Made by a program: the position numbers and the translations under genes
The notes under the pieces: generated by a model
What the model saw: only the letters and a program-made list of their open reading frames with translations
Told to the model about the DNA's origin: nothing
Databases searched by the model: none
Source of the DNA: Candidatus Poribacteria bacterium
Lineage (GTDB): Bacteria > Poribacteria > WGA-4E > WGA-3G
Assembly (NCBI GenBank): GCA_965205015.1
Contig: OZ242029.1
Coordinates: 3,392,001 to 3,456,000, forward strand
Length of the DNA: 64,000 nt
Direction of reading: 5' to 3'
Shown here: positions 22,480 to 58,196 of the stretch, piece after piece
How the letters are laid out: the number at the start of each line of letters is the position of its first letter
How positions within the stretch are numbered: position 1 is the stretch's first letter

Positions 22480-22564
22480 TGGGCGAGGAGGGACTTGAAC
22501 CCTCACGAGGCGTAACCCCAATAGATCCTAAGTCTATCCTGTCTACCAATTCCAGCACCCGCCC
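22480..22564 (-). tRNA. tRNA-Leu(TAG)
   Basis: GGGCGGGTGCTGGAATTGGTAGACA..CT-TAG-GA, long variable arm, GGTTCAAGTCC. Confidence 0.95.
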
Positions 22565-22588
22565 GAACGTGCTTTAAGGCACTCAAGA

Positions 22589-22661
22589 TGCGCCGTGAAG
22601 GAATCGAACCTTCAACCGCCTGATTAAGAGTCAGATGCTCTGCCAATTGAGCTAACGGCGC
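22589..22661 (-). tRNA. tRNA-Lys(CTT)
   Basis: GCGCCGTTAGCTCAATTGG..CTGACT-CTT-AATCAG..GGTTCGATTCC. Confidence 0.95.
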
Positions 22662-22769
22662 GCCTGTTCCCACTGCGAAGCATTTCTTTCTGACCGTAGA
22701 CGCTCTAAGGACCACTCGCTAATTGTTAGGTGCACTTTCAAAGCGCACACCCGGCACCCAAAAAATATC

Positions 22770-22842
22770 CGCGTCCGGAGGGATTCGAACCCCCAACTTA
22801 TAGTTCCGAAGACTATTGCTCTATCCATTGAACTACGGACGC
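22770..22842 (-). tRNA. tRNA-Arg(TCG)
   Basis: GCGTCCGTAGTTCAATGGATAGAGC..CT-TCG-GA..GGTTCGAATCC. Confidence 0.95.
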
Positions 22843-22850
22843 ATATTAAA

Positions 22851-22923
22851 GGTGGATGATGGGATTTGAACCCACGCCCACTTGATCCACAGTCAAGTGC
22901 TCTACCCCTGAGCTACATCCACC
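22851..22923 (-). tRNA. tRNA-His(GTG)
   Basis: G-1 is encoded; GGTGGATGTAGCTCAG..CT-GTG-GA..GGTTCAAATCC. Confidence 0.95.
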
Positions 22924-22956
22924 ATGCTTCGATTTTTCATCGAGCTGTCTGAAAAG

Positions 22957-23030
<74 letters not shown>

Positions 23031-23058
23031 TCGTGCTATGAATTTTGATCGTTTCTGA

Positions 23059-23134
<76 letters not shown>

Positions 23135-53018: not shown

Positions 53019-54434
53019 ATGACTTCAAATATTAAGCCCAAGACGATATTTACGGGTGATAATCTGCCTATCATGCGCGGGATGAACAGTGCATCGGTGG
53101 ATTTAATCTACCTTGACCCCCCTTTTAATAGCAATGCCAACTATGCAGCACCCATCGGTTCTGAGGCTGCAGGTGCTGAGTTCAAAGACACTTGGACGCT
53201 CCGAGATGTTGACATCGCATGGCTTGACCTCATTGAGGCAAAACATCCTGCCCTGAACCGAGTAATCCACGCTGCGATGACAAATAGTGATAAATCTTAC
53301 CTTGTTTACATGGCGGTTCGGTTGTTGGAGATGAAGCGTATTCTCAAGTCAACGGGTTCTATCTATCTGCATTGTGACCCTACTATGTCTCACTATTTAA
53401 AGCTCGTTATGGATGCTATTTTTGGCAAAGAGAACTATCGTGCGGAGATTATATGGAATAGACAGAGTTCTCATAACGATAAATTGTATGGTGCCACTCA
53501 TGAGACAATCTTCTACTATAGTTATGGTGAGAAAGCTATCCCTGATGAAGTACTAATTCCTTTAACTGATAAACGCAAAAAAAACTTTAATAAAAGCGAC
53601 AAACATGGCAAATATGAAGGTGATAATCTAACGGCTTCAGGGAGCAGTGGTGGAGAATCAGGACAACCTTGGCAAGGTATTTCTCCAGGAAATAGGCACT
53701 GGTCACCTCCACGGGTAGGTAGAGGTAGATATGCTGAATACATTGTTAAAAAATTCATTCCAAATTATGGGGAGATAGAAGGTGTGCATGCCCGTTTAGA
53801 TGCTTTAGATGAGGCAGGACTAATTTTTTGGAACAGTCGTGGAAATCCACGTCTCAAGCGTTATCTCACACCAGATGCTGGAATGCCTCCTCAAAGTCTT
53901 TGGAATGATATTTCATACGAAGAAGGTGAAGATACTGGTTATCCTACACAAAAACCTCTGGCACTCCTTGATCGCATCATCAAAGCATCATTAAGCAAAG
54001 ATGGGGTTGTTCTCGATCCGTTTTGTGGGTGTGCTACAACCCTTGTCGCAGCAGATAGGCTTCAACGTCATTGGATTGGTATTGACGTATCTGCCAAAGC
54101 CATTGAATTGGTTGTTGAACGTATCAAAGAGGATCAGGGCTTATTTCGGGACATCATCGCACGCACAGACATTCCAAAACGCACAGATTTAGGAGACATA
54201 TCCCCATACAACGCACCTGAAAACAAAACTCAGTTATATGGAGAACAAAGTGGATATTGTAATGGGTGTGGCACACATTTTCAGAAACAACACCTTGAAG
54301 TTGACCATATTATCGCAGAAAATGTTGGAGGAACTGACCATATTGAGAATCTTCAACTGCTTTGTAGTAACTGCAACAGAATTAAAGGTGACCGCGGGCA
54401 AGAATATCTTGTCTCAAGACTGAACAAAGATTGA
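53019..54434 (+). CDS. N6/N4 DNA methyltransferase fused to a C-terminal HNH endonuclease
   Basis: DLIYLDPPFNS, YPTQKP..LL.RII, DPFCGCAT; CNGC..EVDHI..GGTD..NLQLLC..CNR.K. Confidence 0.92.
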   Translation: MTSNIKPKTIFTGDNLPIMRGMNSASVDLIYLDPPFNSNANYAAPIGSEAAGAEFKDTWTLRDVDIAWLDLIEAKHPALNRVIHAAMTNSDKSYLVYMAVRLLEMKRILKSTGSIYLHCDPTMSHYLKLVMDAIFGKENYRAEIIWNRQSSHNDKLYGATHETIFYYSYGEKAIPDEVLIPLTDKRKKNFNKSDKHGKYEGDNLTASGSSGGESGQPWQGISPGNRHWSPPRVGRGRYAEYIVKKFIPNYGEIEGVHARLDALDEAGLIFWNSRGNPRLKRYLTPDAGMPPQSLWNDISYEEGEDTGYPTQKPLALLDRIIKASLSKDGVVLDPFCGCATTLVAADRLQRHWIGIDVSAKAIELVVERIKEDQGLFRDIIARTDIPKRTDLGDISPYNAPENKTQLYGEQSGYCNGCGTHFQKQHLEVDHIIAENVGGTDHIENLQLLCSNCNRIKGDRGQEYLVSRLNKD

Positions 54435-54473
54435 AATGTGAAAACTACTAATTGCGAATAAGAAAAATACGAG

Positions 54474-55457
54474 GTGATATTTATGATACTTGATGATAAA
54501 TCTTACATAAGAACTCCTAAAAAGAATGTGTCACTGATGCATTATTTAGGATTAACTGAATTAATCTCAATATTCAAAAACAAGTCTATATTCTTCTCAA
54601 CCTGCCAACTATATCAAGACCAACGCGAGGGTGCTTTGACCGAGCCTTCCTACAATGAAACATTAAAAAATTTGCTATGGGAAGATAATACGCCAGTAAA
54701 AAAAGATGATAGTTATTCTAATTACAAAGAAGATGTCATTAATAAAATGTATAGTGCTGGCGAGATACGCTGGATAGACAGTTTTGGATATTTAATACAA
54801 GAGTTCGTCAGATATTTTATGTTCACACATTGCTGGTCACTTTCAGATGAAGAAGATATATTAATGTGGGATAGATATAAATTTCATAAACCCACATTAG
54901 CAATAAAAACAACATTAGAGAGTCTTCAAGATGCTATCAATATACCAATATATATTGGAGAAATAAACTATGTAGATTACGAAAATGAACACATAATAGG
55001 GTATGAAAGGTTTACTGAAAAGAATCTTACAGATAAAGAAACCATAGAAGAACTCTTTTATCAACCCTTTTTTCACAAACAAAAGTGTTACCAGAACGAA
55101 AATGAAGTCCGTTTAATAATATCCTATGAAACCATAACAAAACATTTCACAGAAGAAACATATATAACGGATATTCCATTCTATAATAAAAATGGGTTTA
55201 GTTACAGGGATTTTGGTTTCGACGCAATTTTCCATCTGAAGTCAACTAATCCTAAGAGGTTTACCAAAGAGGACGGGAAAGATATAGATATACCACAAAG
55301 AGTATGTGTAGAAATCAATACTGATATTCTTATAGAACAAATCATAATTTCACCCTATGCCGAAAACTACAATTTTAGTATTGTACGAGATATAGCAGAG
55401 AAGTACGATTTTGATCCAAATAAAATCGTGGACTCTCCAATTAATATCAAGGCATAA
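54474..55457 (+). CDS. Low-GC DUF2971-like protein
   Basis: FTHCWS, LMWDRY, F.K..Y..ENEVRLII, IEQIIISP; markedly AT-rich. Confidence 0.7.
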   Translation: MIFMILDDKSYIRTPKKNVSLMHYLGLTELISIFKNKSIFFSTCQLYQDQREGALTEPSYNETLKNLLWEDNTPVKKDDSYSNYKEDVINKMYSAGEIRWIDSFGYLIQEFVRYFMFTHCWSLSDEEDILMWDRYKFHKPTLAIKTTLESLQDAINIPIYIGEINYVDYENEHIIGYERFTEKNLTDKETIEELFYQPFFHKQKCYQNENEVRLIISYETITKHFTEETYITDIPFYNKNGFSYRDFGFDAIFHLKSTNPKRFTKEDGKDIDIPQRVCVEINTDILIEQIIISPYAENYNFSIVRDIAEKYDFDPNKIVDSPINIKA

Positions 55458-55574
55458 TGACATATCATGAATCTCCTATATTTTTACGAACCGCACAAAT
55501 AATGTGAAATGTACTGCCCCCCTAAATTCGGGCCACTCCCTAAACCAAGATTGTGGTATAATCTCCACGACTTG

Positions 55575-56302
55575 GTGCGTTTCAGCGAATAATGATGGAA
55601 TGTAAGTTCAATTCTTACTCGGTAAACCCAACATCCGCATATCTTACTCTAACTGCGTTGCTGGAAACAGCAAGGTGGAAAGCAAGAGGAAATGGCGCAT
55701 GTCTGCGGACAGAGGCGAAACTCATAAGAGCGTCCAAAAGTGACACGTCCGATAGAGGACGGACATGGATAAACGAAAGTTGAATATCCGTAAGCCTCGT
55801 TAGGATAGACATAGATACCGCCTTGAAAAACTATGGTATTCTAAGATACCTCTTTATAGTAGGTGTCTGAAAGTTGCTATTCAAGTCTTAGCAACTCTAT
55901 TGGGTTCATAGAATACAGGAGTGGGTGGTTTCCCACTGTATCGGGGTATAGGATACTTCTAAATCCGTCTGAGAAGTCTATCATTAGGGAGTTGAAAAGA
56001 ACCTAAGTAGACTCCCCGAGTCTATAAGGTTGAGGAGATTAGGTAGCGTCATTGACGCGAGCATAATCAGGTTGAGTGCTTTGAAACATTTCTGAAAACA
56101 TTTTATCTATAGTCTTGAAATCGTGTGAAAACATGCAGTCTATAGAAGTCGATGACTTATGAATAAGGAAGAAAGTAAAAGTGGTTATCATGACCTAAAG
56201 CGTTTATCGCCACACTCAACTGGAAGGTCTCCATGTGCGGTGAAAGTCGCACGCATGGTTTGGAGGGGGCTGTTAGAGGGCGACCTCTAATGGCTACCCT
56301 AC
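55575..56302 (+). ncRNA. ORF-less group II intron
   Basis: 5' GTGCG; domain V CCATGTGCGGTGAAAGTCGCACGCATGG; domain VI ending CCCTAC; loop TTCAAGTC (55880-55887) in stem AGTTGCTA/TAGCAACT is complementary to the ligated exons GACTTG|AA. Confidence 0.88.
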
Positions 56303-56315
56303 AAAGGAGGTCCCG

Positions 56316-56616
56316 ATGGAGGACCCAACGAAAACAAAGAACCTTCACCCCTGAGTTTAAAGGCCAAATTGTTCTTGAGGCACTTAGCGGTGAAACTTCG
56401 CAAGCGGAACTGGGTCGTCGACACAACCTGAGTGAAGATCAACTCTCGAAGTGGAAGCAGCAAGTCGTTGAAAACGTAGGATCTTTGTTTGCTTCCACAG
56501 AGCAGCAGTCCAGCGAGGCAGCTGAGCGGATCGCACACCTTGAACAGCTCGTTGGGCGGTTGACTGTGGCACTCGACATTCAAAAAAAAGCAGCGACGTG
56601 GTTAGACCAAAACTGA
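56316..56616 (+). pseudogene. IS3-family transposase OrfA (ATG out of frame with the HTH coding frame)
   Basis: AAAGGAGG RBS plus ATG at 56316 reaches TGA after 12 codons; the HTH is in another frame. Confidence 0.7.
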
Positions 56617-56757
56617 CGGAGCAGCAAGAAATAGTTGAGGCACTCCGGACGGATTATTCGGTTCGACAGATATGTAAGGAGGATATACGCGTCAAGGCAC
56701 CCAAACCTAAAGGATTGGGCTTGTGCTTCGTAGCAGTCAGCCTTCCGAGGAAGGGAC

Positions 56758-57978
56758 TTACATCTGCTCCACAGAGGGACCCAAGGCAGCCCTCAAGATG
56801 TTTATCGCAGCGTTTACGTCCCTATCGTGGTGTGAACCACACTCACGACACGTCCACTGCCGATCCGAAAGTGAAAGATTTTCGGTGTGATGCCCGCAAT
56901 CGGAGCAAGGTTTTGTAGTAGGCGTCCACTGCCCAACTTGAGAGAACTCACGATTATGTTTAAAACACTTGAACCTCAGTATCTCAACAAACTGGTAAAA
57001 AGCAAGGTCAGAGACTTTGCGTCCCCACAGACGTTTCATCCCATCAAGGTTCAGCGTCTCGGTGACAATGTGGTCAAACCGACGGCAGAGGTCGGTCGCA
57101 CGTTTGTAGTGCCAATCCCTGCGTTGGTTGGCGATCTTACGATAAAGCCGTGCGAGTTCACGGACAGCACGCCACCAATTGTTAGAACCTTTCTGCTTTC
57201 GGCTGACTGCCTTGTTAAGTTTTCGGAGTTGGTTCAAGGCGTTTTTCAAAGGTTGCGGATGGTGGATCTTCTCACCGGTGCTCAGGGTCAGATAGGTGTC
57301 CATACCGAAGTCTATCCCTACGCTCTTACCTGTAGCGGACATCACTTCTTTGGATTTACTATCTGTCACAACATAGAGCCACAATGTTCCGACAGCATCC
57401 TGACCGATTTGAATATACTTGACGTTCCCCTCCCACTCGCGATGGTGGTGATACAAGATATTTCTGCGGACAAACACAAACTTCTGTTTCTCTATATCCC
57501 ACTCTTTGAAGGAGAGACAGACAGTGCCTCTCGGAACTTTAGACGGTTTATCGTCATCCTTAGGGGGGACTTCAAAGACCTTGTACCCTGTTTGGAACTT
57601 CGCAGAGCGGTATTTGCTACGTTTTTTGAACTTCGGAGGTCCCACGCGCCTGCCACGTCTGCCGTTTTCAATCCAATCAAAGAACCGCTCATACCCGATA
57701 TGGATACGGATAATCACAGCGTCAAGCGTATCACGGGGGATCCATGCCCAATGCTTATGGGTGCGTTCGAGCAACTTCGTCAGATGCGGTTGCAGGCGAA
57801 AACGACCCGCGTATTTTCCATAGATACGGTAATATCGCTTCTCCAAAGCAAGGAAGTGGTTATGCACATCACCCAAGTCATCAAGCATGTTGCCGACGCG
57901 CATGTTTTGCGAGTGTTCGCGTATTTGGTATTTGTAGGTGCGACGCACACGCTTTTGTTTTCGCTTTCGTTTTTTCAT
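56758..57978 (-). CDS. tnpB: RNA-guided endonuclease TnpB
   Basis: TYKY HTH-like start, GIDFG (D), VTETL (E), CSDC/CREC zinc finger, DRDVNAA (D). Confidence 0.93.
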   Translation of the reverse strand: MKKRKRKQKRVRRTYKYQIREHSQNMRVGNMLDDLGDVHNHFLALEKRYYRIYGKYAGRFRLQPHLTKLLERTHKHWAWIPRDTLDAVIIRIHIGYERFFDWIENGRRGRRVGPPKFKKRSKYRSAKFQTGYKVFEVPPKDDDKPSKVPRGTVCLSFKEWDIEKQKFVFVRRNILYHHHREWEGNVKYIQIGQDAVGTLWLYVVTDSKSKEVMSATGKSVGIDFGMDTYLTLSTGEKIHHPQPLKNALNQLRKLNKAVSRKQKGSNNWWRAVRELARLYRKIANQRRDWHYKRATDLCRRFDHIVTETLNLDGMKRLWGRKVSDLAFYQFVEILRFKCFKHNREFSQVGQWTPTTKPCSDCGHHTENLSLSDRQWTCRECGSHHDRDVNAAINILRAALGPSVEQM

Positions 57979-57989
57979 AGGATGTCACG

Positions 57990-58072
57990 TATCACGCCTT
58001 TAACCCCTGATAAGTGGGTGGGACCGACACGTAACCTTGCGGTTACGCTTATCATGTCGGTCCAACGTGATA
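57990..58072 (-). ncRNA. Pseudoknotted 5' leader RNA, copy 2 (tnpB leader)
   Basis: TATCACGTT/GGCGTGATA, GGACCGACA/TGTCGGTCC, TGATAAG/CTTATCA pseudoknot, CGTAACC-GCAA-GGTTACG. Confidence 0.75.
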
Positions 58073-58077
58073 CATCT

Positions 58078-58106
58078 ATCAAACCATAATTTATTGAAAA
58101 TGTCAA
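58078..58106 (-). promoter_or_regulatory. sigma70-like promoter for the tnpB leader
   Basis: TTGACA-17 nt-TTTGAT with a TG extension. Confidence 0.55.
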
Positions 58107-58196
58107 GTGTTTTTTCAAAAAAAAACGCTATGGTCTAACACATGAGGGCGGATTTTCCTCCCAAGTCTAAAGACTTGGGTTTCCAATCCGTAAACT

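Follow-up and report, generated by a model that had tools for sequence, protein, structure and literature searches.

Can a group II intron remain active when the catalytic triad of its domain V is interrupted? This question is raised by an intron without an open reading frame (ORF) at 55575-56302 on the forward strand of a 64,000-nucleotide stretch, referred to as the window, of contig OZ242029.1 from a Candidatus Poribacteria bacterium. The intron lies in the leader of an insertion sequence (IS) of the IS3 family. The AGC triad of domain V is the metal-binding heart of these ribozymes and the counterpart of the AGC triad of spliceosomal U6, and it is treated as nearly invariant. A first-pass annotation of the window had reported an intron whose triad G was replaced by T and had offered three explanations: a disabled intron that silences the IS, a variant ribozyme or a sequence error. 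The intron, its boundaries, a non-canonical domain V and the position between a -10-like box and the ribosome-binding site (RBS) of orfA were confirmed; the replacement of the triad G by T was not, and the change in domain V is of another nature. The variant ribozyme is the best supported of the three options, since 16 copies with a bulged domain V occupy unrelated sites in another poribacterial genome (G001) and an intact intron that encodes a reverse transcriptase (RT), L097, is itself bulged. On balance we favor, with fair confidence, a trans-mobilized family of the IIB / chloroplast-like kind whose bulged domain V, as we infer, stays functional.

The 728 nucleotides (nt) at 55575-56302 constitute a genuine group II intron without an ORF. 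It starts with GTGCG at 55575 and ends with CCTAC at 56302, in agreement with 5' GUGYG and 3' AY termini. Of the two Rfam models that the first-pass annotation had proposed to scan, RF00029 (Intron_gpII, domains V/VI) matched 56222-56302 with 48.3 bits against a threshold of 40 and was the sole non-tRNA Rfam family detected across the window; the D1-D4 model, the only addition in a permissive scan, matched 55632-55760 with 26.5 bits and stayed under its threshold of 34. The G+C content is 43.1% in the intron and 48.3% in the window. ORFs entirely within the intron do not exceed 65 amino acids (aa), and two longer ones (89 and 127 aa) merely overlap its 3' end, the 127-aa ORF being the orfA frame extended back into the intron. 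No second intron copy was present in the window, and tblastn with the RT of a relative gave no match there at E≤1.

Both boundaries are fixed by L031, a copy of this IS3 leader without the intron, because it joins ...CACGACTTG directly to AAAGGAGG..., that is, exactly between GACTTG and AAAGGAGG (in longer context, ...GTATAATATCCACGACTTG followed by AAAGGAGGCCCCGATGGCG...). The junction predicted earlier was thus correct, and the intron-less copy does not join elsewhere. Exact empty sites were seen in three intron-free IS leaders (L031, L007 and L001). L007 is the empty site for the intron L003, and L001 is that of a second, upstream insertion position (...GATTGTGC followed by TACAAT...), which is used by L009, L038, L040, L065 and others.

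Domain V of the window intron differs from that of its canonical sisters by an insertion and a base change. The two features concerned are as follows.
56225-56261, forward strand: domain V, 37 nt, A-G-G-(UCU)-CCAUGU GCGGU GAAA GUCGC ACG CAUGG UUU
56228-56230, forward strand: UCU bulge, 3 nt, between the triad G and C, from sister-copy homology and the insertion in the Rfam alignment

Canonical sisters read CUGGA-AAG-CC... or CUGGA-GAG-CC..., compared with CUGGA-AGG-UCU-CC... in the window. The presumed G-to-T substitution at 56230 is actually a 3-nt TCT insertion after the triad G, accompanied by an A-to-G change at 56226, and the Rfam alignment likewise places the insertion at 56228-56230. 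UCU is missing in L030, L010 and L009 and present in L003, L011 plus 15 further G001 copies, L040, L065, L066 and L045b. The canonical domain V is described as 34 nt long with an AGC or CGC triad (PMC4424553). Compared with that description (PMC4424553), domain V of the window has 37 nt, UCU splits the triad into GG-(UCU)-C, and the A-to-G change gives tandem G.U pairs. The upper stem, the GAAA loop, the 2-nt bulge of the 3' strand and the lower CC/GG pairs are the same as in canonical sister copies, and the triad G with its G.U wobble is retained. Two other readings of the insertion were rejected. An ungapped reading with UCU as the triad yields three pyrimidine-pyrimidine mismatches, and a pairing of CUCC with GGAG of J5/6-domain VI is seen only in folds of domain V in isolation, and the G001 copies do not conserve it.

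The following bulged forms of the triad strand were found among the copies.
AAG-UCU-CC: L040, L066
AGG-UCU-CC: window, L003, 16 G001 copies, L065, L045b
AGG-UUU-CC: L096
GGG-UUU-CC: L007, L097
AGG-UU-CC: L041, L057, L068
GGG-U-CC: L067
AGG-U-CC: L042, L044, L047

In two bulged copies (L097 and L067) the 3' strand ends in UUC, and both have G at position 1; bulged copies with a 3' strand ending in UUU have A or G there. This pattern at position 1 supports a helix in which the three bases preceding the bulge would still pair with 3' UU(U/C).

The distribution of the bulge was determined in a census of 175 Poribacteria genomes. The search patterns had a fixed upper stem and allowed purines only before the bulge, and they are blind to other variants such as AAGUC in L087. 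A bulged domain V with 1-3 extra bases was matched 31 times in 9 genomes, with 18 of these matches in G001, and a canonical domain V 57 times in 35 genomes. Reversed-pattern controls gave 0 matches. The base before the triad G was G in 29 of the 31 bulged matches and A in all 57 canonical ones. These data bear directly on the proposal of an error in sequencing or assembly behind the odd domain V of the window, a proposal for which nothing speaks beyond the rarity of the form. The string GGAAGGTCTCC recurs in independent assemblies (17 times in G001, also in G139 and G173), the bulge occurs at 31 places in 9 other genomes, and a contig from an RNA library is identical to window positions 56196-56265, bulge included. 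An error is thereby excluded for all practical purposes. Another RNA contig lacks the three bases and therefore stems from a canonical relative.

A scan of a species-genome collection with the domain V core returned seven loci, six of them in Candidatus Poribacteria bacterium records; the seventh, in a metagenome-assembled genome of an Oscillospiraceae member, has the core alone in common. When the genomes containing these loci were searched with the whole intron, G001 returned 24 matches, G002 four and G003 one. Phylum-wide, 68 of the 175 genomes had at least one match, a figure that comes from scoring 3 candidates per genome and is not a census. The window itself is present in sponge metagenome runs, and a sponge symbiont among the Poribacteria is therefore its most likely source; the small word shares of the RNA-library runs carry no information on habitat. 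In a metagenome collection the bulge pattern found 13 loci, none of which was truly bulged: all were rejected as canonical GGGCC- or CGCC-type domain V in a shifted register. Soil-type metagenome introns (L128-L140) have the same upper domain V stem with an uninterrupted GGC triad (GGGCC...GGUCC), and a G at triad position one is therefore natural in other group II lineages. Neither group II introns of Poribacteria nor a domain V triad that is bulged or otherwise atypical turned up as the subject of a paper in a literature search, which was incomplete in coverage, so that a prior description is possible.

An indication that bulged copies move comes from G001. This genome contains 16 copies of a 692-nt intron with AGG-UCU-CC, 12 of them identical and the remaining ones with 1-2 differing nt. 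Each copy follows the same 13-base target, matched to its exon-binding sites EBS2 and EBS1, and beyond the target the flanks are unrelated; in global alignments they are 55-58% alike. Repeated reverse splicing of an RNA that was already bulged would be expected to produce such a pattern. The insertion sites (e.g. the flanks of L013-L029) lie between ...TTGTCTGAATCAG and GATT(T/C)NCAGGATT..., in short diverged repeats of G001. Among the loci examined, which comprised 15 intron-bearing contexts and not a scan of the genome itself, no empty target site was found. The canonical sister in the same genome, L030, differs from the burst only at 424, by an extra A at 484, in domain V (616 plus TCT), at 628 and at the last base. 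In this comparison no compensating change elsewhere in the intron was evident, and in other copies the differing positions are not linked to the bulge.

Outside domain V the ribozyme was assessed by a consensus fold and pairing counts from 16 aligned copies, which are 66-91% alike. The fold into domains I-VI comprises 189 pairs, 78 of which show compensatory change on both sides; such pairs numbered 42.7 ± 3.5 in the shuffles and 15-20 in the slid controls. The fraction of cells paired was 97.6%, against 89.0% in shuffles and 36-41% in slid controls, and none of 500 shuffles reached the observed covariation value. The domains are placed as follows.
55580-55997, forward strand: domain I, consensus fold
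56000-56031, forward strand: domain II, consensus fold
56037-56068, forward strand: domain III, consensus fold
56070-56221, forward strand: domain IV, consensus fold
56264-56300, forward strand: domain VI, Rfam alignment, with compensatory change in 11 of 15 helix pairs

The RNA of the window copy is structurally well preserved, with 4 of the 189 consensus pairs broken (1-12 within the family, 1-9 in canonical copies). Where it differs from the bulged sister L003, 18 of 22 pairs still pair (11 of 15 outside domain VI). The branch-point A56296, the seventh base from the 3' end, is bulged or unpaired in both the Rfam and the consensus fold. The types of domain VI (alignment columns 719-755) deviate from the whole-intron tree: the sisters L040 and L065 differ in type, and the distant L042 and L066 have one type in common. 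This mosaicism points to an exchange of 3' segments between copies.

These results have to be weighed against the explanation that the bulge is an inactivating lesion and that the bulged copies are dead relics, spread by a mutational hot spot or at the DNA level (recombination, duplication or gene conversion among copies). Bacteria commonly contain inactive intron copies (PMC2882425), the mosaicism of domain VI would itself be an exchange of 3' segments among copies, the window copy sits in a decayed IS, and a leader position implies little selection for efficient splicing. The G001 copies argue in the opposite direction: unrelated flanks together with precise EBS1/EBS2-matched targets are a signature of reverse splicing, not of duplication, and 12 identical copies speak for a recent burst after the bulge had arisen. 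Moreover, random decay would hardly place 1-3 pyrimidines between the same two nucleotides in copies of at least five target specificities, and the ribozyme outside domain V is paired as well in bulged copies as in canonical ones. We consider it rather unlikely that the bulged copies are relics.

Target choice was examined through the pairings between the intron and its exons, where the intron-binding sites (IBS) are the exon partners.
55562-55566, forward strand: IBS2 (TCTCC), one mismatch to EBS2 in the window copy
55569-55574, forward strand: IBS1 (GACTTG), 6 of 6 positions complementary to EBS1
55803-55807, forward strand: EBS2 (GGATA), loop region pairing with exon positions -15 to -7
55882-55887, forward strand: EBS1 (CAAGTC), loop of hairpin 55873-55895
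55949, forward strand: EBS3 (U, T55949), pairs with A56303

EBS1 forms at least 6 contiguous pairs with the IBS1 of its own exon in all 16 aligned copies, and the two co-vary, as in L003 (AGTGAG / CTCACT), the G001 copies (CTGATT / AATCAG), L010 (CATTTG / CAAATG) and L009 (GCACAAT / ATTGTGC). The mean run was 6.6 with the own exon, compared with 4.7 with exons of other copies. In 12 of 16 copies the EBS2 region has at least 5 contiguous pairs with exon positions -15 to -7; the counterpart of IBS2 in L031 is TATCC, which is complementary throughout to GGATA. At EBS3 (alignment column 394), 15 of 16 copies have a base that pairs with the one opening the 3' exon, 14 of them through a Watson-Crick pair. 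The first-pass annotation had described a hairpin loop complementary to the ligated junction of GACTTG and AA; the CAAGTC/GACTTG part stands as EBS1, and the extra TT/AA is absent from sister copies. A delta-delta' reading of TT/AA was rejected because the first 3'-exon base pairs with EBS3.

An EBS3-IBS3 pairing from a site separate from EBS1, as found here, is the mark of IIB-type introns. The RT of a relative that is 68% alike in domain I has RVT_1, GIIM and HNH domains, and its best solved-structure match is 6ME0 chain C (E 7.8e-97), which we take to be the RT of Thermosynechococcus elongatus, an identity not stated by the search tool. As the window itself has no RT, a class by RT derives indirectly, from the best structural match of a relative. 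Taken jointly with the explanation given below, an intron of the IIB / chloroplast-like kind, from a family that occurs in the sponge symbionts Candidatus Poribacteria, is the assignment that we hold to be reasonably probable.

The single intact RT gene of this type in G001, with RVT_1, GIIM, RVT_N and HNH domains, lies in a canonical intron, L037 (Rfam 69.9 bits). This intron (G001:C1:410290-414623, minus strand, 1001-3334) is located inside a tRNA-Sec gene (Rfam tRNA-Sec 3326-3413); its 5' exon ends ...GGTTCGACTCCCA and its 3' exon begins CCCTCTCCCGCCA, and its splicing would be required for tRNA-Sec production. In G115 the sole RT of this type is encoded by a full 2.4-kb intron with domain V GGG-UUU-CC, L097 (G115:C178:54500-57500, minus strand, 248-2684). 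The ORF is open, has 614 aa and contains YADD; it extends across J4/5 as far as domain V, where the UGA of the GGUGAAAG loop is its stop codon. A truncated copy in G152, L096, has the same ORF ending (...EGFRVR followed by the stop). L045 (G173:C3:2338608-2342267) is a twintron, in which introns of the same family, one canonical and one bulged, are nested.

A further explanation is that the bulged domain V is dead in cis and that bulged ORF-less copies are spliced and mobilized only through a canonical intron of the same cell, which supplies either a domain V RNA or a tolerant ribonucleoprotein in trans; bulged copies would then be parasites of the canonical intron at the level of both ribozyme and protein. 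G001 indeed has the canonical RT-encoding L037 and the canonical ORF-less L030 beside its 16 bulged copies, domain V can act in trans in vitro, and RNAfold leaves the triad unpaired in the forms with three extra bases. In G115, the sole RT-encoding intron of this type is itself bulged, which is difficult to reconcile with such a rescue; one canonical domain V copy exists in that genome. Selection on a bulged helix is also suggested by the A-to-G change that accompanies the bulge (in 29 of 31 bulged matches and in none of the 57 canonical ones) and by the covariation at position 1. To our knowledge, no in vivo case exists in which a domain V supplied in trans displaces the resident one in cis, which also counts against this explanation. 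We judge such a rescue in trans to be distinctly unlikely.

The favored explanation is that the bulged domain V would itself be functional. The window intron may have entered the IS3 leader by reverse splicing, between the -10-like box and the RBS of orfA, at a target selected via EBS1, EBS2 and EBS3. As it has no RT, it would depend on the RT of a related intron elsewhere in the genome and be mobilized in trans. Its domain V would belong to a form R-G-G-(1-3 pyrimidine-rich bases)-C-C, in which the three bases before the bulge remain paired, and this form would allow splicing and retromobility in vivo, though perhaps less efficiently. The tandem G.U pairs may compensate for the bulge. That this amounts to a natural bacterial IIB lineage, splicing competent and retromobile with 1-3 extra pyrimidine-rich bases in the triad and the A-to-G change, is a proposition to which we assign an about even chance.

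Several observations weigh against a functional bulged domain V. The bulge falls at the site of catalytic metal binding, where, from established structures, it should be harmful. With RNAfold the three triad pairs were formed across a 1-nt bulge and not across a 3-nt bulge. Bulged copies score 43-50 bits with Rfam, compared with 63-70 bits for canonical copies. The census figures count copies, not independent events, and outside G001 there are 1-2 bulged copies per genome. In the tree, bulged copies are intermingled with canonical ones, and together with the mosaic domain VI this makes the ancestry of the bulge untraceable. The window copy has its one mismatch in IBS2, and the RT search for it, which covered the 64-kb window only, found no RT partner there. 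Finally, four RNA-library runs were compared as Logan contigs with 55450-56650, a comparison in which uncovered parts and contig depth are uninformative. In contigs of three runs (X15, X16 and X17), 55574 is joined to 56327 with 20 letters between. This joint was rejected as a product of splicing, as the 20 letters equal an intron-free IS leader such as L031. The contigs show the existence of an intron-less form and leave the splicing of the window intron unproven.

The remaining proposal, a disabled intron that silences the IS, depends on the state of the host element, which comprises the following features.
55510-55574, forward strand: IS3-family left end and leader (5' exon), begins TGTACTG, 98.5% identical to L031 338-402
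55554-55562, forward strand: extended -10-like motif TGGTATAAT, read from the sequence
56303-56310, forward strand: RBS AAAGGAGG, first bases of the 3' exon
56316-56616, forward strand: IS3 orfA (HTH_Tnp_1), Pfam E 1.1e-12 and alignment to L031 and L007
56617-56679, forward strand: start of IS3 orfB; blastn of L031 against the window ends at 56679

Membership in the IS3 family is indicated by the HTH_Tnp_1 OrfA, the end starting with TG and a slippery A8 run in orfA at 56582-56589. The element is not intact. Directly after its ATG, orfA has 4 extra nt (56316-56330, ATGGAGGACCCAACG compared with ATGGCGAAACG in L031), and it is therefore out of frame and the transposase frame lacks a start. Homology ends at 56679, and neither an intact orfB (DDE) nor a right end is present. 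With its frameshifted orfA and its truncation at 56679, this IS3 copy is dead, and splicing therefore has no present consequence for transposase expression. The intron had been placed between the IS3 promoter and the RBS of the transposase. The -10-like box and the RBS are there; a two-hexamer promoter scan called no promoter at TGGTATAAT and found no -35 match there. Similarly, of the proposal that splicing joins the promoter to orfA, the RBS in the 3' exon remains, and the frame of orfA behind it is shifted. Silencing of the IS by a disabled intron finds no support, as the RBS lies downstream of the intron, which occupies the 5' leader of an IS already dead for other reasons. An unspliced transcript would still contain the RBS and orfA, and silencing would not follow from the position of the intron.

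The second, commoner insertion position in the IS3 leader lies between ...CCAAGATTGTG(C/A) and TA(C/T)AAT... (L009, L038, L040, L049, L052, L065 and others). It splits the -10-like box, and copies inserted there are therefore not transcribable from that box. The reverse arrangement also occurs, with IS3 copies within introns of this family (L001 593-2532; L007 minus strand, 2557-4853), so that introns of this family and IS3 elements repeatedly insert into one another.

At the end of the IS3 homology, a TnpB-like gene of 406 aa (ORF 56758-57978, minus strand) with OrfB_IS605 and Cas12f1-like TNB domains was found. This stretch (56680-58140) probably represents an element of the IS200/IS605 type by which the IS3 was cut, and 56680-56757, downstream of the stop of the gene, would be the candidate guide RNA region. 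Just upstream of the IS remnant, positions 53019-55457 encode a 471-aa fusion of an N6/N4 DNA methylase with an HNH nuclease and, after it, contain an ORF of 327 aa without a Pfam match. A cluster of six tRNA genes lies at 22480-23134 on the minus strand.

Among known systems, the introns TeI3/TeI4 of T. elongatus are the closest parallel. They are likewise of the IIB / chloroplast-like kind, with short ORF-less copies outnumbering RT-encoding ones (PMC2882425). There, ORF-less TeI3 introns are mobilized by driver RTs of TeI4 (PMC2882425), and the poribacterial copies are presumably likewise mobilized in trans. Twintrons also form in the T. elongatus family (PMC2882425), and in both cases an RT-encoding member resides in a tRNA gene, tRNA-Ile in T. 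elongatus (PMC2882425) and tRNA-Sec in G001. The poribacterial family differs in its host phylum, in its favored target, the IS3 leader, and in the large share of copies whose domain V triad helix contains a bulge of 1-3 nt. In the part of the T. elongatus account drawn on here, only mispairs in the upper domain V stem are mentioned, in copies thought to be impaired (PMC2882425).

Degenerate organellar introns likewise have an off-consensus domain V, and their splicing would need trans factors (PMC4424553). They are described as vertically inherited, immobile and variously decayed (PMC4424553), whereas the poribacterial ribozyme is otherwise intact and its bulged copies have recently multiplied in a bacterial genome.

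The use of a multicopy IS as a landing site has a counterpart in RmInt1, which reportedly homes into ISRm2011-2. In the poribacterial case the site is an untranslated leader with two positions ~17-20 nt apart, not a transposase gene, and the window intron is ORF-less.

Bacterial ORF-less introns are rare, and surveys could miss introns with unusual domain V structures, according to a 2015 review (PMC4424553). Searches with a canonical domain V score the bulged copies ~20 bits lower, and shorter or more divergent ones may be missed. With this family, Poribacteria join the few bacteria known to have a proliferating ORF-less intron family. If the favored explanation is true, the element regarded as the most rigid part of the group II and spliceosomal active site tolerates an interrupted triad helix. 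The bulge might then tune activity, for example the RT dependence of ORF-less copies or an attenuation in harmless leader sites. The G001 burst and L030, which differ by a handful of bases, would constitute a natural experiment on the distortion of a catalytic core and its compensation.

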